Positions 10,673 through 56,117 of a stretch of 64,000 nt of DNA are shown here, piece by piece. The notes under the pieces are model-generated. The model was given only the letters and a program-made list of their open reading frames with translations, had not been told where the DNA came from and searched no databases. The translations under genes were made by a program, and so were the position numbers. Source of the DNA: an uncultured Candidatus Saccharibacteria bacterium. Lineage in GTDB: Bacteria; Patescibacteriota; Saccharimonadia; Saccharimonadales; Saccharimonadaceae. The first letter of the stretch is position 1, and the number at the start of each line of letters is the position of its first letter. The stretch spans positions 7,522 to 71,521 of the forward strand of contig CAMVFY010000001.1 of NCBI GenBank assembly GCA_947166895.1. Direction: 5' to 3'.

Positions 10673-12598
10673 ATGATTTTAAGCATTATTTTGGCAATCA
10701 TTGTGGCGCTGGCGATTGCTACGGCAACGCATTTGCTCCACGGGGGCGGGTTGACTGAAGAGGTCGAAACCCGTACAGGAAAAAAGAGGAGCAAGTTTGC
10801 TTTTCTGAAGGAAGTAGGTTCGGATGAATGGATAAAGGCCATTTGTGTCGGTCTGATAGTGGGGGCGATAAATTATTTTACGCCCAAGCTGTCGGCTGCA
10901 CTGTGGCTGGCTCCGGTTTTCTTGGCCGTAATGGTGGCCTGGTATATTTATTTGATGTACTGGTGGCACCGTGATGGTTCTGAGTGGATCGAAGTAATTC
11001 CGTTTGTCGTGCTAGCGGTTGTGTCGTTTTTTACGATGCGGGCTACAGCGATGGCAACAGCGGCGCTCTGGAACAGTGCGTTTTGGACTTCTGTTGTTGT
11101 AACTATTCCGTGGCTGTTCATTATGGCAACGATCGGATTTATCATTATCGATGCGTTTTATTTCCGCTATCGGGAAATGTATGAAGCTGAAGATGGTGAC
11201 TCCGATGAAGTGCTTGATGAAAAGGATGAGAAGAAGGGACATTATCATGCACTAGGCATTCTTGCCAGCGTGGTGACGACGATTATCCTGATTGTCATTT
11301 TGGCAACTGGGGTAAAGTGGTCTAGTTTCAATCTTCCGGCACGGAATGTGACTCAGCCAGTAGTGGTGGAGACGCCAACTGTAACGCCGAATGAGCCGGT
11401 GATAACTGAACGAGCGGCGCAGCCGTTCATAGCCTTTTTTAATCCGTCGATGCTGAAGGACGAGGACTCTTCGAACGATTTTAACTTTGGTTATAATCCG
11501 AGAGAGTTCTTTCCGGAGTGGACGGAGGCGAAGGATTTCGACCGTGATTTTCGCGATCGGATTGAAGTTGACCCGGCGCTACTCGCGGCAGATGCGGCTT
11601 GGCTTGATGCAGTGGTCGGAACCAGATACACTGGTAAATTTTATGACTCTTGCAAGGGTGACTGGGCGGAAACTATGAATCAGGCTAAAGTCAAGTTCAT
11701 GGAAGATCCGGAGCTTTATAAGGCGACTCGGGAAGCGTGTTTCGCTTTTCTCGATTCGGCGACAAAGGTCGAGCTGAAGGAAGCTGAGGATATGGACGAT
11801 CAGATGTATATGAACCCGTTCACGGTGGACGGAGTGCCTGACATCATCGTCATGAAAACGAACGACCACACTGGATTGTTCCTAGTGTATAGTTTCGAAA
11901 TTAAGGGAGAAGTGTTTGAAGTGGCGTACCGGATTGACTGTGGGTATCAGCCCACGAACGTCGAGAAGGTGATGAAGATTCCTCCGGTGAAACCGCCGGT
12001 GAATCCTACTCCGACACCCACTCCTACGCCCACTCCGACTCCGACTCCGACGCCTACGCCTACACCGACGCCCACACCGACTCCCACGCCTACTCCGACT
12101 CCGACACCGACTCCCACGCCGACTCCGACACCCACGCCTACTCCGACTCCGACGCCGGAACCGACGCCGGATCCTCCGGAGCCGTGGTGGCCTTATTATG
12201 ATAAGGATCCGCGCGAAGGAGTCCAGGGCGATCCAGTCGCCCCGAATGACAATCCGGGACCTGGACCGAACACCAACAACGGTCGCGGCGCGATGGAATC
12301 CACTGAGGATTTGGATACAAATTCCAATCACTATAACAGATATCGGGATTACCAGAAGGACCTCGATGAGTTGGAGGAAATCAACGACAATCAGAGAACT
12401 GGGGACGATAATAATCGGCCCTCGACTCCGGCACCGACGCCTGGCACAAACGTTGATAACAACGGAAACCGGGGCACTGGAAACGGCGGCATTAACAACC
12501 CGACTCCGGTGGAACCGTTGGTGGAAGAAGAAGACGGAGACACAATTGTCAACAATCCCTCGAATCCGGCTGGCGAATGGGGAGGCCCGCCGGATTAA
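10673..12598 (+). CDS. membrane-anchored protein with (PT)25 linker and Asn/Asp/Pro-rich tail
   Basis: About six N-terminal TM segments; Pro-Thr repeat; GGAGG SD. Confidence 0.8.
12005..12154 (+). repeat. (Pro-Thr)25 coding tandem repeat
   Basis: 25 consecutive CCN-ACN codon pairs with varied third positions. Confidence 0.95.
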
Positions 12599-12790
12599 GC
12601 ACCATAGATAGCTATGTGGGTGAAGTCCATGGGCGGGACGGCCCAAGTACCTTAGTAAAAAGTCCGGCGGTTTTGAACCGTCGGACTTCATCCAAGATTT
12701 GAGACTGAGATGATTTGGCTGTACAGACGAATATTAACAATTCGGCTAGCAACACAAAATTATTATCAATTATTTAAAGAAAGGAATAAT

Positions 12791-14068
12791 ATGCGTAATA
12801 TTTACAAAAGCATTTTAGGCTTATCTGCTGCTGTAGTTATAGCAGCCGGTACGCTAACTCCTGCTATCGTAAATGCTTGGGGTGACTCTAACAATGGTCG
12901 TCCGAGCTATACGTTGTCGCAGATTGAAAATGGGGTACTTGGTAATACAATTACCTTTAACTCCATTTCAAATAACCAAAAAATCGGAAACGAAAAGAAT
13001 TTCGTCGGTGCAAAAGTAGCTGGTGAAAAGGTCACCACTTGGAATGCCGACACGATAAATGTGAAAGATGGCGAAACTTATACGATTCGTCTTTATGTTC
13101 ACAACAATAACCCCAAGGGGTTAAATGCAATTGCTAAAGATGTAAGAGCTACCTTTAGCGTTCCTACTACAGTTGCTAAAACTCAAACGATTATCGGGTA
13201 TCTTGATTCTTCAAATGCCTACCCGGCTCGTTATTGGGATGAAGTAACCCTTAAAGCTAGTGAGGATGTTTACCTTGAGTATGTTGACGGTTCGGCTAGG
13301 TATGTAAATGCCAAGCTTGGCACCGTTAAACTTGCAAACTCAGTGGTAACCTCTGGTGCGCTTTTGGGTTATGATAAATTGGACGGCAATATCCCTGGTT
13401 GTTATAAATATGACGGCGTAGTGATGATTGACGTTAAGGTCCATAGCTCTGTAGCTGCGAAGGTCTCTAAAACTGTGCGAATTAAGGGCAGCTCTGACAA
13501 GACTTGGAAAGAATCTGTTACCGCTAAAGTTGGTGATGAAGTAGAATTCCAAATTGAGTACGTGAATTTACTTGCATCGCAAGTGAATAATGTGATGATT
13601 CGGGATGTGCTTCCGACTAACATCGAGTACGTAAAAGATTCTACTTATCTTTATAATGCTGCTTACCAAAAGGGTATTTTGCTAAATGATAATACTTTGG
13701 TTACCAATGGTATTAACATCGGTAGTTACAGCCCTAAGGGTAATGCTTATGTTCGCTTTACTGGTAAAGTAGTGAATAAGACTTTGGCTTGTGGTTCTAA
13801 CCAGTTAGTTAACTGGGCAAGCGCTACGGTCAATAAGGATGTTTACAAGGATGATGCGTCAGTGATGGTTAATAGGGATGATGAAACCTGTAAGACCACT
13901 CCGACACCGACTCCTACTCCGACACCAACTCCTACTCCAGAACCGACTCCAACCCCAACCACAATAGTGTCGACGGGTCCGGAGACGATTGTAACTGGTG
14001 CGATTGGTGCTGGTTCGATCGTAACCGCTGCTGGTTACTTTATTGCTAGCCGTAAAAAGTTAATGTAA
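12791..14068 (+). CDS. secreted DUF11-like repeat protein with PT linker and xxTGP-type C-terminal anchor
   Basis: Signal peptide; KTVR...VTAKVGDEVEFQIEYVN...IRDVLP; STGP followed by TM helix and RKK. Start set by AAAGGA SD. Confidence 0.75.
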   Translation: MRNIYKSILGLSAAVVIAAGTLTPAIVNAWGDSNNGRPSYTLSQIENGVLGNTITFNSISNNQKIGNEKNFVGAKVAGEKVTTWNADTINVKDGETYTIRLYVHNNNPKGLNAIAKDVRATFSVPTTVAKTQTIIGYLDSSNAYPARYWDEVTLKASEDVYLEYVDGSARYVNAKLGTVKLANSVVTSGALLGYDKLDGNIPGCYKYDGVVMIDVKVHSSVAAKVSKTVRIKGSSDKTWKESVTAKVGDEVEFQIEYVNLLASQVNNVMIRDVLPTNIEYVKDSTYLYNAAYQKGILLNDNTLVTNGINIGSYSPKGNAYVRFTGKVVNKTLACGSNQLVNWASATVNKDVYKDDASVMVNRDDETCKTTPTPTPTPTPTPTPEPTPTPTTIVSTGPETIVTGAIGAGSIVTAAGYFIASRKKLM

Positions 14069-20558: not shown

Positions 20559-21646
20559 TTGATTTCCTCGGGCTCTTGTTGGAGCCAGTAGCCGAATTTA
20601 TCGTAAACTTTGCCTACGATTTCGGTACGGGCGGCGACGAGGTCTTGATAGGACTTGGCAGATTCGTTAATGAGGATGAGAGAGGCTTTGTCGCTGACGC
20701 GGAAACCATGAAGTAGTTTGCCTTTGAGGCCGGCTTTTTCGATTAGCCAGCCGGAGTTGATTTTGTTGCCATCATGACCACGGTGGACTGGGTAGCCTTT
20801 GGCCTCAGCGGCGTCGGCTTCTTCGTTGGTGAGGTAGATGTTTTTGAAGAAAGAACCAGCGCTGGGGGTGGTTGATGGATCCGGTAGCTTGTCGGTGCGG
20901 ATGCGACTTACGATGTCACGGATGCCTTGGGGTGAGAAGTCGGTGCAGTTGTTTTCGGCGATGTAGCGTTCGACAGAATTGTAAAAAGGACGAGACATTT
21001 GGCCTTTTTTTAAGGCAAGTGTAACGGAGACGACGAAGTAGCGACCTTTTTCAGTGGTGTTGAGTAGGCTTTTACGGTATGAAAATTGAAGGTCGGACTT
21101 TGCTAAAGTTTTGAAAGTGTTAGTGACGGAATCGAAAACTTCGATTTCGACTAACGTGTCGGCAATTTCTTGACCGTAGGCACCGATGTTTTGGACAGGG
21201 GCAGCGCCGGCGAGACCAGGGATTTTGCTTAAGGCTTCGATGCCAGTAAGACCACGTTTACAAGCGAAGGCGACAACATCATCCCAGTATTCGCCACCCA
21301 TAACTTTCAAGCACGTTCCGCTCGGCGGGTCCTGCCGCGCCTTTTCCTCCCCCATTTCGCTGACGCTCAATGGGGGGCCCCCTCCAGGCGCGTCACCCGC
21401 TGATGTAATGTCTTGCTCGGATATGCCACGGATGCGGTTGGTGAGGATGACGCCGGGATAGCCTTCGTCGTGGCCGATGGTGTTGGCGCCATAGCCGAGG
21501 ATGAAAATCGGGAGATTGTTGGTACGAGCAAAATTATAAGCTTCGGGAATATCTTCGGGCTTTTCGATTTCGATAACATATCTTGCTGGGCCACCAAGAC
21601 GCATGGTGGTAAGGCTAGAAATCAAAACGTTTTCACTGATTCGCAT
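20555..21646 (-). CDS. murB: UDP-N-acetylmuramate dehydrogenase with in-frame insertion
   Basis: TTMRLGGPA, IPGLAGAAPVQNIGAYGQE, FSYRKS, PSAGSFFKN, SGWLIEKAGLKG, EPE. Confidence 0.94.
   Translation of the reverse strand: MRISENVLISSLTTMRLGGPARYVIEIEKPEDIPEAYNFARTNNLPIFILGYGANTIGHDEGYPGVILTNRIRGISEQDITSAGDAPGGGPPLSVSEMGEEKARQDPPSGTCLKVMGGEYWDDVVAFACKRGLTGIEALSKIPGLAGAAPVQNIGAYGQEIADTLVEIEVFDSVTNTFKTLAKSDLQFSYRKSLLNTTEKGRYFVVSVTLALKKGQMSRPFYNSVERYIAENNCTDFSPQGIRDIVSRIRTDKLPDPSTTPSAGSFFKNIYLTNEEADAAEAKGYPVHRGHDGNKINSGWLIEKAGLKGKLLHGFRVSDKASLILINESAKSYQDLVAARTEIVGKVYDKFGYWLQQEPEEIK
21308..21415 (+). repeat. GC-rich palindromic element inside murB
   Basis: Nested stems tcggcgggt/acccgctga and tgacgc/gcgtca; contains ACGCTCAA, shared with the pnp and ruvA copies. 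Confidence 0.6.
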
Positions 21647-22979: not shown

Positions 22980-23659
22980 TGATAATCACTAACTTAAAGC
23001 AGGGGGTGAAGAATCCGAATCGGGTGAATGTGTTTGTTGACGGAAAGTTTGAGTTTTCGTTAGATATCACGCAGGTAGTGGATTATAAATTGAAGGTCGG
23101 AAAGGAATTAACGGTTAAGGAGTTTGACGAGTTAAAAAAGGCGAGTGAATTTGGAAAGTTATATCAAAGGACTTTGGAATGGGTGCTAACGCGACCGAGG
23201 AGTGAGAAAGAGGTCCGAGATTACTTGGTGAGAAAACTGAAAACATCTTCTTCGGGACGCTCCTCGCTCCCGTCTTCACGGGGCTCGTCGCTGCGTCCTC
23301 GTAGCAACTGCGGATGCCCCTCAGAAGATATTTTCCAGTTTTCTCAGGCAATCATCGACCGTCTAATCACCAAGGGGTATCTGGATGATAGAAAGTTTGC
23401 AGAGTGGTACGTTCAGAATCGGTTTGTGAAGAAGGGGGTGTCGAGGAAACGTCTTCAGATGGAACTGATGAAAAAAGGGATTTCTCGCGAGATTATTGAT
23501 GAAGTATTAAATGCACGAAATGATGAGGAAGAAATTTTAAAGATAATCGCCAAAAAGCGGACAAAATATACGGACGAAAAGCTTATTCAGTATCTTTGTC
23601 GGCAGGGGTTTTCGTACGAGCTGGTGCGTAATCTTGTTCAGACTTACGAAAAGGATTGA
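22979..23659 (+). CDS. recX: regulatory protein RecX with in-frame insertion
   Basis: Follows recA; NRVNVFVDG, RPRSEKEVR, YLDDRKFA, YLCRQGF. Confidence 0.88.
   Translation: MIITNLKQGVKNPNRVNVFVDGKFEFSLDITQVVDYKLKVGKELTVKEFDELKKASEFGKLYQRTLEWVLTRPRSEKEVRDYLVRKLKTSSSGRSSLPSSRGSSLRPRSNCGCPSEDIFQFSQAIIDRLITKGYLDDRKFAEWYVQNRFVKKGVSRKRLQMELMKKGISREIIDEVLNARNDEEEILKIIAKKRTKYTDEKLIQYLCRQGFSYELVRNLVQTYEKD
23237..23338 (+). repeat. GC-rich palindromic element inside recX
   Basis: Arms ctgaaaacatcttct / agaagatattttccag; inner ends TTCGG...CCTCAGAAG match the pnp-leader copy; 102 bp. Confidence 0.75.
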
Positions 23660-24198: not shown

Positions 24199-24954
24199 TT
24201 ATATCATATCGGTAAAATTTGAAAGTGGCGTAGAATCTTTGATGTCATAGGTTCCAACCTTGGTGCGGCGCAGGGCGGTGAGATAGGCGCCAGTTTGAAG
24301 CTTGGCGCCGATATCTTCGGCTAACGTGCGGATGTAAGTGCCGGAGCTGCAGTGGATGCGGAGTTTGAGTTCGGGGTAGTTATAGCTTAAAATGTCGATG
24401 GAATAGATTTCAACTTCGCGAGAGGGGATTTTGAAATCTTGGCCTTTGCGAGCGAGCTTGTAGGCACGTTCACCGCCTATTTTGATGGCGGAGAATTTGG
24501 GTGGGGTTTGCACAATTTTACCAACGAATGTTCTGGTAATTGTCTCAACAGCATCCAACTCGGGGCGCGTCGCTCGCGCTCGTCGGCACGGGGCGAGCGC
24601 GCTACTCCTCGCCTTGCCAGGCTCCGGACCCCCTTCGTTTGGATACTGTTGAGACTTTGAAAATGGTTGAATCATTCCCTCCGGGTCGCCGGTGGTGGAG
24701 GTGTAGCCGAGTTTCAGGGTGGCTTCATAGATTTTGTCGAGTTTTAGAAAATCGGTGGATTTTTTGGTCATTTGGCCGGTTAAGAGGATTAAGAGGCCGG
24801 TGGCGAAAGGGTCTAATGTCCCAGTGTGGCCGACTTTGACTTTGTGGCCGAGTTTGGCTTTTAGATACCCACGGACTTTGGCGACGACGCCGAAGCTAGA
24901 AATCCCCGCGGGTTTGTCGATTAGGATAACTTGATTATCGGGAGTATTTTCCAT
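24199..24954 (-). CDS. truB: tRNA pseudouridine(55) synthase with in-frame insertion
   Basis: IDKPAGISSFGVV, KVGHTGTLDPFATGLL, PPKFSAIKIGG, CSSGTYIRTLAEDIG. Confidence 0.96.
   Translation of the reverse strand: MENTPDNQVILIDKPAGISSFGVVAKVRGYLKAKLGHKVKVGHTGTLDPFATGLLILLTGQMTKKSTDFLKLDKIYEATLKLGYTSTTGDPEGMIQPFSKSQQYPNEGGPEPGKARSSALAPCRRARATRPELDAVETITRTFVGKIVQTPPKFSAIKIGGERAYKLARKGQDFKIPSREVEIYSIDILSYNYPELKLRIHCSSGTYIRTLAEDIGAKLQTGAYLTALRRTKVGTYDIKDSTPLSNFTDMI
24542..24655 (+). repeat. GC-rich palindromic element inside truB
   Basis: 17-bp arms gtctcaacagcatccaa / ttggatactgttgagac (16/17); core starts CTCGG; 114 bp. Confidence 0.8.
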
Positions 24955-28803: not shown

Positions 28804-28890
28804 TAGGAGCCATCATAATCTCCTCTTCGGACACGCTCAAGGGCGCTCGCCCAAGCTTACGGTCCTCAGAAGAGATTATGATGGCTTCTA
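28804..28890 (+). repeat. palindromic element in the pnp leader
   Basis: About 22-bp imperfect arms around a 41-bp core (28827-28867). Confidence 0.85.
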
Positions 28891-55530: not shown

Positions 55531-56036
55531 GGATTCTTGGAATTGATCCGGGGATTGGAATCTGTGGGTTTGGGTTGATTGAAACGACGTCGCGGGCGCG
55601 GGCGCTAGATTTTGGTGCAGTTACAACGATGGTGGATGCGCCTTTGCCGGCTCGGTTGAAAGAACTATACGATTCCTTGTCGGAAGTATTTGAGGAGACG
55701 AAACCAGAGATGGTAGCCGTAGAAAAGTTGTTTTTTGCAAAAAACATTACGACTGGAATTGCGGTGGCTGAGGCGAGGGGGATTGTGCTACTTGTTGCTG
55801 AGCAGCATGGGTTACCGGTTTATGAATATACTCCGAACGAAATCAAAAAGAGTTTGACTGGTTATGGTGCGGCGACTAAAACTCAGATTGAGGAAATGGT
55901 GCGAGTGCATTTGGGGCTTGAGTGCAAGCCAAAGCCGGATGATGCGGCGGATGCGCTGGCGGTGGCGATTACTTGCAGTTTTCTTTATGAGCATGGTCAA
56001 AATCAAGAATATAGTTTTTCAAATTCGCGTCGTTAA
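55527..56036 (+). CDS. ruvC: Holliday junction resolvase RuvC
   Basis: ILGIDPG, VEKLFF, AEARG, YTPNEIK..LTGYG.A.K, PDDAADALAVA. Confidence 0.96.
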   Translation: MRILGIDPGIGICGFGLIETTSRARALDFGAVTTMVDAPLPARLKELYDSLSEVFEETKPEMVAVEKLFFAKNITTGIAVAEARGIVLLVAEQHGLPVYEYTPNEIKKSLTGYGAATKTQIEEMVRVHLGLECKPKPDDAADALAVAITCSFLYEHGQNQEYSFSNSRR

Positions 56037-56117
56037 AATATGAGATTTTCTTTCTCGGACACGCTCAAGGGCGCTCGCCCGAGCTTATGGTCCTCGAAAT
56101 GAAAATCTCATATTTTA
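56034..56117 (+). repeat. palindromic element between ruvC and ruvA
   Basis: Perfect 17-bp arms taaaatatgagattttc / gaaaatctcatatttta around a 41-bp core that is 39/41 identical to 28827-28867. Confidence 0.9.

Follow-up and report, generated by a model that had tools for sequence, protein, structure and literature searches.

The truB gene of an uncultured Saccharibacteria bacterium carries a 114-bp palindrome, read in frame, whose 80-bp core belongs to a repeat family that we call family A. The family is apparently undescribed, and no account of it was found in the literature. Judged from its distribution and predicted fold, family A is a genus-restricted, multi-copy, GC-rich double-hairpin DNA element. 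Considering the comparisons presented below, we regard it as on balance probable that the truB palindrome is a selfish copy of this family, similar to the Rickettsia palindromic elements (RPEs), which is maintained by fold-back template switching. The window analysed is a stretch of 64,000 nucleotides from a genome of 660 kb (G000); other G-numbers denote related Saccharibacteria genomes.

The host gene, truB (tRNA pseudouridine-55 synthase; 24199..24954, minus strand), is an uninterrupted ORF of 251 amino acids that contains the element. Its product matched the PDB entries 1sgv, 1r3f, and 1k8w (E = 3e-36 to 5e-34) in two blocks, query residues 9-95 and 132-246. Orthologues are present in 39 of 41 related genomes, and in their alignment GH.G.LD and further invariant TruB columns are retained in this protein. 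The inverted-repeat search placed the palindrome at 24542-24655, with 17-nt arms paired at 16 of 17 positions (94%) and a spacing of 80 nt; the coordinates and anatomy given in the preliminary description (114 bp, in frame, with 17-bp arms around a GC-rich core starting with CTCGG) were thus confirmed. The arm at the CTCGG end (24542..24558, plus strand; GTCTCAACAGCATCCAA; inverted repeat I1) encodes LDAVET on the minus strand, and the arm at the CCCC end (24639..24655, plus strand; TTGGATACTGTTGAGAC) encodes SQQYP(N) on the minus strand; the one mismatch between the arms is C·A as read on the plus strand. Between them lies the repeated unit, the family-A core (24559..24638, plus strand), whose top strand reads 5'-CTCGGGG...CCCCTTCGT and which has 76% G+C in a genome of 45% G+C.

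The core is predicted to fold as a double hairpin, with two hairpins enclosed by the arms (MFE -59.8 kcal/mol, z = -3.16 versus shuffles). Its closing stem P0 (24562..24633, plus strand) pairs GGGG at 24562-24565 with CCCC at 24630-24633 in the fold, and the adjoining position covaries in the alignment of other copies (GGGGT/ACCCC versus GGGGC/GCCCC). Hairpin H1 (24567..24602, plus strand) has a conserved apical loop and a long GC stem, the lower part of which is variable and covaries; the apical consensus CCCG-TCGCCA-CGGG is represented in the truB copy by CTCGTCGGCACGGGG. Hairpin H2 (24606..24628, plus strand) contains in the fold an inner hairpin, GCCT-TGCC-AGGC, at 24611-24622. Its variants GCCTTGCCAGGC, GCGCTGCCGCGC, and GCTTTGCCAAGC covary, and the loops of both hairpins are similar (TCGCCA versus T(T/C)GCCA). 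Among 146 unique copies the loops and linkers are conserved and the stems covary; a given position shows up to four types of Watson-Crick pair, and 94% of the cells are paired. In the AF2 model of TruB it was possible to see a confident helix at residues 133-141 (LDAVETITR), while the core peptide was disordered (pLDDT < 50) and the rest of the protein was confident; the residues of the arm 24639-24655 adjoin this low-confidence loop.

Family A has 12 copies in G000 (nhmmer E <= 7e-4) and at least 137 copies in at least 119 loci of other Saccharibacteria of the ruminant gut (Ca. Nanosyncoccus). It is present in 20 of the 61 genomes of the genus, with about 10-40 copies per genome at positions that are not conserved, and the search of 246 other genera of the phylum gave no copy. 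Every family-A record title among the matches listed names Saccharibacteria or Nanosyncoccus. An actinobacterial or Bifidobacterium origin was discarded, the 119 loci among the matches listed having all 39-53% G+C, and a phage vector was rejected since the family-A pattern was not found in IMG/VR viral contigs. Stem variants specific to one genome recur in identical form at several of its loci, and several unrelated core families share the architecture, the ends CTCGG...CCTCGA being conserved across families. Regarding the hosts, 11 of the 12 copies of G000 lie in long uninterrupted ORFs and the twelfth is cut by the contig end; the genes include truB, topA, argS, alaS, ligA, pcrA, and pepN. 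Among the matches listed from other genomes, 125 of 137 copies are within intact ORFs and all six reading modes are used (antisense 27/17/28, sense 31/19/3), so that the same core gives unrelated peptides in different hosts.

A key aspect of these elements is the nature of the arms. Only the core of about 80 bp is repeated; the arms differ at every locus, and all copies of G000 carry their own flanking arms of 13-28 bp. In 136 copies, flank complementarity had a median of 10 versus 3 for mismatched flank pairs and exceeded the 99th percentile of the control in 71% of the cases. The flanks have 41% G+C against 76% in the core, and the arm composition is host-like. In truB, the arm 24542-24558 aligns with INQIKN, LDEVKE, and LADVEK of the empty orthologues and with TruB of M. 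tuberculosis from residue 99 on, where the PDB alignment begins with ELDAVET; the arm 24639-24655 had no counterpart in the empty TruB orthologues. The first of these arms codes for the beginning of a helix native to TruB and is thus the host-derived one; the empty orthologues, the PDB alignment, and the confident AF2 helix at LDAVETITR are in agreement on this. The arm 24542-24558 belongs to the helix-coding sequence of TruB itself, and the arm 24639-24655, its reverse complement, is a copy or rewrite of this host arm. An orthologous truB arm, GCTGTTGA, is common to G004, G006, and G021.

The length gained at each site is consistent with this view. With respect to empty orthologues the net gain was 84 nt in truB, 87-90 in argS, 90 in ligA, 90-96 in topA, and 96 in alaS, which in the loci compared by hand corresponds to the core plus 4-19 nt and never to the core plus both arms; in the comparisons against G000 it ranged over 75-121 nt. 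The import of both arms with the element was therefore ruled out, the net gain being smaller than the core and two arms, and one arm aligning to the host. It had been proposed that the insert adds 38 codons to TruB; the comparison with empty orthologues lowers this figure to about 28-32 codons, LDAVE(T) being native. Because net gains vary (75-121 nt), the second arm may either be truly an inverted duplication or have been rewritten without a change in length. Arms can also grow outward at the expense of host codons: in ligA, the outer 12 bp of the arm were made by overwriting CTN-AAR-CTN-AAA into CTCAACCTCAGA. The host-side arm was mostly the C-terminal side in five hand-checked loci, argS in G021 being the opposite. 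No usable signal for a rule (gene side, element end, or fork side) emerged when two hypothetical ancestors were scored against the G000 orthologues, which often carry their own insert at the site. A pre-existing palindrome as the target was also rejected: 63 empty orthologous sites showed no more palindromic character than positions drawn at random from these genes, a mean fraction of 0.69 of the random sites being at least as palindromic as the empty site.

The arms are kept paired while the sequence changes, and the cores are exchanged. The truB arms of G000 and G004 are separated by two compensatory double changes (T-A to A-T; T-A to C-G); the peptide of the insert changes freely and the pairing of the DNA is kept. 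Cores are found flipped in place between homologous arms, and different cores fill the same loop across species in truB, topA, argS, and ligA. Many orthologous sites are empty, most TruB orthologues being without the insert, and G012 keeps a deletion remnant. At least six species have kept the insert in truB, and this persistence, together with a reading frame that is always maintained and free of stops, is what would be expected if the insert were a new loop of TruB under selection for its peptide. Such an adaptive role is scarcely credible to us, considering the six reading modes and the unrelated peptides they produce, the predicted disorder of the segment, the orthologues that lack it, and the freedom of the peptide to change between G000 and G004 under conserved DNA pairing.

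Other hairpin copies were located in the window. A family-B insert (21308..21415, plus strand; core at about 21320-21406; HMM match C1:28841-28927, E = 1e-19) lies in murB, a minus-strand gene, and spans a minus-strand ORF of 367 aa. An A-like insert is in frame in recX (23237..23338, plus strand; core at about 23250-23304), detected as a GC island and by the HMM match C1:30771-30825; the recX ORF carries a Ser/Arg-rich insert, and the copy, which gives E = 8.6 with the family-A model, is A-like but distant. Two E-family cores are intergenic, one of 41 bp with 23-bp locus-specific arms (28804..28890, plus strand; inverted-repeat catalogue C1:36325-36411) and a second with 20-bp locus-specific arms (56034..56117, plus strand; catalogue C1:63555-63638), both oriented by HMM. 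The homology among the five cores that the preliminary description contemplated holds in part: truB is family A and recX is distantly A-like, while murB and the two intergenic copies have other cores. Its observation that the TCGG end faces leftward on the plus strand in all five was reproduced, at window positions 21320, 23250, 24560, 28827, and 56055.

It had also been suggested from these five copies that the orientation follows the chromosome strand rather than the host gene, and the genome-wide comparison with GC skew upheld this. The orientation was not random: considering all hairpin families of G000, the TCGG-first strand coincides with the locally G-rich one in 37 of 42 copies. In foreign loci, among the matches listed, 85 family-A copies agree with the local GC skew and 27 oppose it; when orthologous sites were collapsed, since orthologous copies inflate the raw counts, 43 were with the skew and 7 against (about 86%), clustering reducing this inflation without removing it. 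With respect to the host gene, 52 copies are sense and 71 antisense, and where gene and skew are in conflict the element follows the skew 36:4 (both among the matches listed). These orientation tests in foreign loci, and the mismatch tests described below, cover family A, families B and E having few matches there. GC skew is here a feature of the chromosome strand: in the window it is +0.1 to +0.4 throughout, independently of gene direction, and 67% of the genes are on the G-rich strand. The top strand of the element is itself C-rich, which leaves the bias unexplained by base composition. The genomes being fragmented, GC skew serves only as a proxy for replication direction. At about 86% of the independent sites, whatever the direction of the gene, the CTCGG-first strand coincides with the G-rich strand, presumed to be the leading one, and the bias is not absolute.

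The arm mismatches point to the strand that folds. On the top (CTCGG) strand they were A·C in 50 cases versus G·T in 10 (23:4 by cluster), and this excess holds in the sense (22:2), antisense (23:8), same-skew, and opposite-skew subsets. Wobble pairing could thus accommodate five times as many of the mismatches on the bottom strand as on the top one; since those on the CTCGG strand are mostly A·C, it appears to be the complementary bottom strand that folds. The bottom strand also folds more stably in 129 of 137 copies among the matches listed. The core stems are without a bottom-strand wobble bias (on the top strand, G·T 39 versus A·C 15, mostly from one pair). Judged by these arm mismatches, the strand that folds would in most copies be located on the template of the leading strand.

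The same signature bears on a structured RNA element in the truB mRNA, acting on stability, translation pausing, or in a riboswitch-like manner. A stable RNA fold is indeed predicted and the stems covary; nevertheless, the antisense copies are at least as frequent as the sense ones in the counts given above, the wobble asymmetry tracks the element and not the transcribed strand, related species carry different cores at the same site, and the Rfam scan of the element, even at a permissive threshold, gave only a chance-level match (13.5 bits, E = 6.7), with no matching family. This possibility is disfavoured, and we consider it highly improbable. Another possibility is that the elements are orientation-dependent single-stranded DNA signals useful to the host in replication or repair, such as priming or restart sites or polar sequences of the Chi or KOPS type, their genic location being incidental. 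Co-orientation of about 86% with the replication strand independently of genes, conserved loops and linkers over covarying stems, pairing maintained on one strand in any gene or skew direction, and arms that remain paired across speciation would agree with it. The distribution would not, being patchy (20 of 61 genomes of the genus, none of the 246 other genera), with about 10-40 copies per genome in unconserved positions, many empty orthologous sites, decay of copies by deletion, and several unrelated cores with the same architecture; furthermore, concerted evolution via template switching can mimic selection for pairing. A host signal is accordingly very unlikely in our estimation.

We also searched for transposition machinery. 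The domain Y1_Tnp (PF01797) was detected in six well-known control genomes, whereas G000 and 23 of the 24 other genomes of the genus lack it; a Y1 or RAYT transposase was rejected on this absence from 24 of 25 genomes. Given that the MAGs are 93% complete, the lack of a PF01797-type gene may be compatible with a novel enzyme, or with one encoded on an unsampled replicon or in a partner organism. No target-site duplication was detected (boundary direct repeats 1.22 versus 1.22 in the control), and no common motif was visible outside the cores of the 12 G000 copies, whose arm/core boundaries are fuzzy. A classical MITE was excluded, there being no excess of flanking direct repeats and the arms not being conserved as terminal repeats.

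These results have to be considered against a non-autonomous single-stranded DNA transposon (MITE, PATE, or REP-like, from the IS200/IS605 or RAYT world), for which a Y1 HUH enzyme would act in trans, the folded strand would be excised and inserted into single-stranded DNA at the fork, and the bias would be set at insertion. It would account for the two same-strand hairpins with similar loops, as for two ends bound by one protein, for the ends CTCGG...CCTCGA conserved across core families, for an orientation strongly biased with respect to the replication strand, and for the strand-specific folding signature; the lack of target-site duplication is like that of IS200/IS605, and identical variants are found at several loci of one genome. 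On the other hand, the Y1_Tnp domain is missing from the genus with one exception among 25 genomes, viral contigs are without copies, a conserved target tetranucleotide beside the cores is not evident given their fuzzy boundaries, and locus-specific arms derived from the host are foreign to such chemistry. Elements of the IS608 type use the lagging-strand template, unlike the folding strand of family A, which is mostly on the leading-strand template. Taking both sides into account, we find this transposon unlikely.

In the reading that the sequence signatures lead us to prefer, a selfish element maintained by fold-back template switching, a nascent single strand with the bottom-strand sequence would fold on the core and copy its own flank. 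Intrastrand switching of this type would create, perfect, extend, and flip the arms. In the majority orientation the bottom strand would be the nascent lagging strand, and this would tie the wobble signature to the replication-oriented bias. The core would be copied between loci either without a dedicated transposase or with one so far unrecognised; copies would survive only in frame, stop-free, and in a dispensable surface loop, the encoded peptide being a by-product. SbcD was absent from 25 of 25 genomes of the genus (detected in 13 of 14 controls), and the lack of SbcCD probably lets such palindromes persist. As the nuclease is absent from the genus, SbcCD-dependent loss was rejected as the cause of the orientation bias, and an argument from survivorship must rest on slippage or other nucleases. 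A bolder version, which we advance tentatively and consider possible rather than probable, is that family A is transposase-free mobile DNA: its core would spread and persist purely by replication template switching of the folded nascent strand, building its stem from the host sequence of the landing site, flipping, and swapping cores between loci, with orientation and wobble as a record of the switching strand and a genus without SbcCD as permissive ground.

If this were true, there would be an undescribed layer of selfish hairpin DNA in essential genes of ultra-small symbiotic bacteria, with stems written from the host gene and direction set by the replication fork. Template switching and strand asymmetry would be recorded naturally in organisms that are not yet genetically tractable, the spread of a short repeat without any transposase would become a testable question, and there would be a second independent case, besides Rickettsia, of protein evolution via in-frame palindromes. 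In practical terms, the inserts inflate and distort the marker alignments (truB, topA, argS, alaS, ligA, and gyrA) used in the phylogeny and annotation of the CPR.

Several known systems can be compared with family A. The GC clusters and double-hairpin elements of fungal mitochondria are short, mobile, GC-rich sequences in AT-rich genomes, sometimes in frame in genes, and resemble family A as short GC-rich hairpins, some of them with two hairpins; they are organellar, bring their own ends, and are accompanied by short direct duplications of the target, and we know of no host-derived arms or replication-strand rule in them. With REP/REPIN and RAYT systems and the MITEs derived from IS200/IS605 (PATEs), family A shares GC-rich hairpins recognised by structure and not by stem sequence, a strand-specific biology, the lack of target-site duplication, and a replication-linked orientation. 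It differs in that 24 of 25 genomes of the genus have no Y1 or RAYT gene, in its location in frame inside genes and not between them, in its locus-specific outer arms, and in a folding strand that is mostly on the leading-strand template.

To our knowledge, template switching has not been described as the mode of propagation or maintenance of a dispersed bacterial repeat family. Fold-back priming and the correction of quasipalindromes through template switching within one molecule are established mutational mechanisms (see PMC5941160, PMC7467729, PMC10622511). They would account for perfect arms, compensatory double changes, outward extension, loop inversion, and inverted flank copies; they constitute a mechanism and not an element family. 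Nematomorpha have coding palindromes in genes of their mitochondria (Mikhailov et al. 2019, PMC6649704). There, as in family A, near-perfect inverted repeats are genic, both arms are translated, repeats are gained and lost dynamically, and their maintenance is proposed to rest on template switching or repeat conversion. Those animal mitochondrial repeats lack a conserved multi-copy core, and no rule of orientation is reported for them (PMC6649704), whereas in family A a dispersed GC-rich core seeds each palindrome.

A close likeness is to RPE-1 to RPE-10 of Rickettsia (Ogata et al. 2000, 2002, as cited in PMC6649704). RPEs, like family A, are multi-copy, hairpin-forming repeats of about 100-150 bp in a reduced genome, inserted in frame in housekeeping genes without inactivating them, in surface-exposed regions of the protein, with no known transposase, and regarded as selfish DNA. 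The likeness is one of description, the two being set side by side from different phyla, with family A in the Patescibacteria. RPEs carry conserved terminal repeats and are reported to lose repeat identity over time (PMC6649704, discussion), while in family A only the GC-rich core is repeated, the stems being locus-specific, drawn at least in part from the host gene, and actively kept paired. Family A is further distinguished from RPEs by its replication-strand orientation and by cores that flip and are exchanged at one site.

The palindrome in truB occupies 24542-24655 of the window (114 bp) and consists of two 17-nt arms, at 24542-24558 and 24639-24655 and complementary at 16 of 17 positions, around an 80-nt core of approximately 76% G+C that starts with CTCGGGG. 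It lies in frame within an uninterrupted minus-strand ORF of 251 amino acids (24199-24954), which is TruB by its match to PDB 1sgv (E = 3e-36) and has orthologues in 39 of 41 related genomes; the coordinates and anatomy of the preliminary description were reproduced. Folding of the single-stranded unit gave one long hairpin (minimum free energy -59.8 kcal/mol, z = -3.16), whose interior is formed by three elements, namely a closing GGGG/CCCC stem, a long hairpin H1 (24567-24602) and a short hairpin H2 (24606-24628).

A profile of the core recovered 12 copies in the source genome (an assembly of 660 kb in 33 contigs, 93% complete, 45% G+C), and the search of this genome with the 17-bp truB arms returned no other match. 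Each core copy there has its own inverted arms of 13-28 bp, AT-rich and host-like. For 136 copies in other genomes, the flanks had 41% G+C and a median complementarity of 10, against 3 when left and right flanks of different copies were paired; 71% of the real copies were above the 99th percentile of this mismatched-flank control. Among 146 unique cores the stems are Watson-Crick at 94%, with up to four pair types per position, and the loops and linkers are conserved, the loops TCGCCA and T(T/C)GCCA being alike. The homology first supposed among five copies in the window was retained in part: they have the architecture and the (C)TCGG start in common, and their core sequences belong to several families. 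Only the truB copy is of family A; recX carries a distant A-like core, murB a different core (family B) and the two intergenic copies a 41-bp core (family E). A GC-rich 75-bp sequence (GGCGCCATCTCCC.GGAATAATGCGCCCCCTTCCCGCGAGC...) near two contig ends of the same genome (C6:13-89 and C25:355-429) would be another kind of repeat or else an RNA gene. In argS on contig C9 the family-A insert is itself near the N-terminus, and the peptide SKPRGDGSERTRSRSLQTS in the C-terminal third of the 589-residue ORF suggests a second, partial hairpin insert.

The insert is missing from most TruB orthologues in the genus, as in ...GKLEK-IS-NIVP-DINQIK-NTINSFLG. Read on the gene strand, the arm at 24542-24558 encodes LDAVET, which aligns with DINQIK, TLDEVK and TLADVE of empty orthologues and with Mycobacterium tuberculosis TruB from residue 99 on, and which supplies the opening turns of a native helix that AlphaFold2 models with confidence; this arm is therefore native TruB sequence. 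Since the loop from PEG to F.G has 49 residues here and a modal length of 21 in empty orthologues, the insert adds a net 28 codons or so (84 nt), and at most 32 if whole genes are compared in length, so that the 38 added codons initially proposed, counting the core and both arms, were an overestimate. At four further loci, checked against 24 genomes of the genus, the net gains were 87-90 nt (argS), 90 nt (ligA), 90-96 nt (topA) and 96 nt (alaS), and other loci compared with the source genome gave 75-121 nt; alignments in these variable loops carry an uncertainty of a few codons. As the gains are smaller than the core plus both arms, host sequence makes up at least one of the arms and in many cases part of both. 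The second arm would be a short duplication in inverted form or else a rewrite that leaves the length unchanged. For ligA, whose arms are 27-28 bp long, the outer 12 bp come from conversion of an ancestral CTN-AAR-CTN-AAA to CTCAACCTCAGA, which complements the conserved SEVE codons exactly. Empty sites were no more palindromic than random positions, which indicates that existing hairpins are not simply the target, and no direct target-site duplication was found at the element boundaries.

The truB insert has an orthologue in G004, a related genome, and comparison of the two pairs of arms revealed two full compensatory double changes (T-A to A-T and T-A to C-G) together with one unpaired transition each, while the lower stem of H1 had been swapped for another self-complementary variant. 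A-type cores, all antisense, occupy the truB loop of G000 (the source genome), G004, G006, G021, G001 and G013, which have the orthologous host arm GCTGTTGA in common; different cores occupy this loop in other species. The apparently empty truB loop of G012 (locus L005) retains only GAGCGTTCCGAGA, a terminal piece of the A-like core that is intact in G001, and thus elements degrade through internal deletions, and some of the sites that look empty are remnants. In the truB locus of G017 (L014), the PEG to F.G loop has at the element site an AT-rich insert of 70 residues, for which folding gave a hairpin of great length (-53.8 kcal/mol); a GC-rich core could not be recognised in it, and it may consist of arms alone or be a palindrome that has overgrown. 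In topA, argS and ligA, as many as four core families were seen across species at the equivalent loops, between arms made from each species' own local codons, and at one orthologous site the core lies in opposite orientations between homologous arms in different genomes.

A strict 25-base core pattern, scanned over one genome per prokaryotic species, matched at least 119 loci. Among the matches listed, all sources were Saccharibacteria/Nanosyncoccus MAGs from sheep, goat, yak, buffalo, deer and similar hosts, with 39-53% G+C throughout. Within the genus, 20 of 61 genomes contain the pattern, with 1-8 strict matches apiece; it was found neither in 300 other genomes of the phylum (246 other genera) nor in IMG/VR viral contigs. 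Identical, genome-specific stem variants occur at two or three loci per genome (e.g., G012, G011 and G017), which argues for recent intragenomic copying.

Host proteins in the source genome include TruB, TopA, ArgRS, AlaRS, LigA, PcrA, aminopeptidase N and RarA. Selection for an encoded peptide was considered and judged very unlikely: the 125 coding copies use all six reading modes (antisense 27/17/28, sense 31/19/3) and thus specify unrelated peptides, and the TruB model (mean pLDDT 88.7), confident elsewhere, drops below a pLDDT of 50 over residues 106-125, which the core encodes and which lack secondary structure. A function as an mRNA element is likewise very unlikely, given that antisense copies are at least as many as sense copies (71 against 52 relative to the host gene) and that the Rfam search returned no family.

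Taking GC skew as a proxy of replication direction, and with all the compared genomes being MAGs, we related orientation to the local strand. In the window the plus-strand skew is very strong and uniform irrespective of gene direction (+0.1 to +0.43 per 2-kb window). The one exception is 12001-14000, with a skew of 0.003, where short repeats of the CCGAC/CCCAC type form a C-rich run of 186 bp at about 12011-12196. The top strand, which reads CTCGG first, was on the locally G-rich strand in 37 of 42 copies of all families in the source genome, and this majority orientation is also that of the truB copy in G000 and in G004. Family-A copies in other genomes agreed with local skew in 85 cases and opposed it in 27; collapsed to 61 orthologous-site clusters, which reduces the dependence among orthologous copies without removing it, 43 agreed against 7 opposing. 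When gene and skew were in conflict, the element followed skew by 36 to 4. The earlier proposal that orientation follows the chromosome strand rather than the host gene is thus upheld, as a strong bias and not a rule. Base composition would predict the opposite orientation, since C exceeds G on the core top strand (4738 against 3560). Of the host genes (61 site clusters), about half are on the presumed lagging strand, compared with 30-33% of all genes; elements may be over-represented in lagging-strand genes, or the sense orientation may be less tolerated in leading-strand genes.

The arms also retain a strand signature. On the top strand, 50 of their mismatches read A·C and 10 read G·T (23 against 4 by cluster), and the excess holds in sense (22:2), antisense (23:8), skew-concordant (29:8) and skew-discordant (13:0) copies. 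Given that a top-strand A·C corresponds to a G·T wobble on the opposite strand, arm pairing appears to be made or preserved on the bottom strand, independently of transcription and of replication side. Mutational skew would give the opposite asymmetry. In 129 of 137 copies the bottom strand is also the more stable of the two when folded with DNA parameters (-40.9 against -37.7 kcal/mol), and in the majority orientation it is presumed to be the nascent lagging strand and the leading-strand template. Core stems did not display the bias of the arms, and it was therefore taken to reflect the way in which arms arise or are maintained.

The best-supported reading is that of a selfish, non-autonomous hairpin repeat, similar to Rickettsia palindromic elements (RPE), filtered by selection to in-frame sites in dispensable loops. 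Intrastrand fold-back template switching on a nascent strand with the bottom sequence would make, perfect, extend and invert the arms; such a process would yield host-derived arms, their outward growth, flips and the wobble asymmetry, and compensatory double changes with no need for selection. If switching took place mainly on the lagging strand, the replication-linked orientation would also be explained. Arrival of the core at a new site might proceed by microhomology-mediated template switching to another copy or through an as yet unrecognised enzyme that works on the conserved CTCGG/CCTCGA ends. A Y1 (IS200/IS605 or RAYT) transposase was found in neither the source genome nor 23 of 24 other genomes of the genus, G023 being the only one of the 25 to encode it. 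SbcD (TIGR00619), part of the hairpin-cleaving SbcCD nuclease, was undetectable in all 25, with 13 of 14 controls positive, and its absence is a plausible permissive condition for palindromes.

A full-text literature search returned no description of such elements in Saccharibacteria. The nearest published analogue is the Rickettsia palindromic elements, alongside the coding palindromes in the mitochondria of nematomorphs, which were proposed to undergo repeat conversion by template switching (PMC6649704). The in-frame selfish palindrome is a kind already known; what is new here is the host-built stems, the turnover of cores at fixed sites, the replication-strand rule and the strand-specific folding signature.
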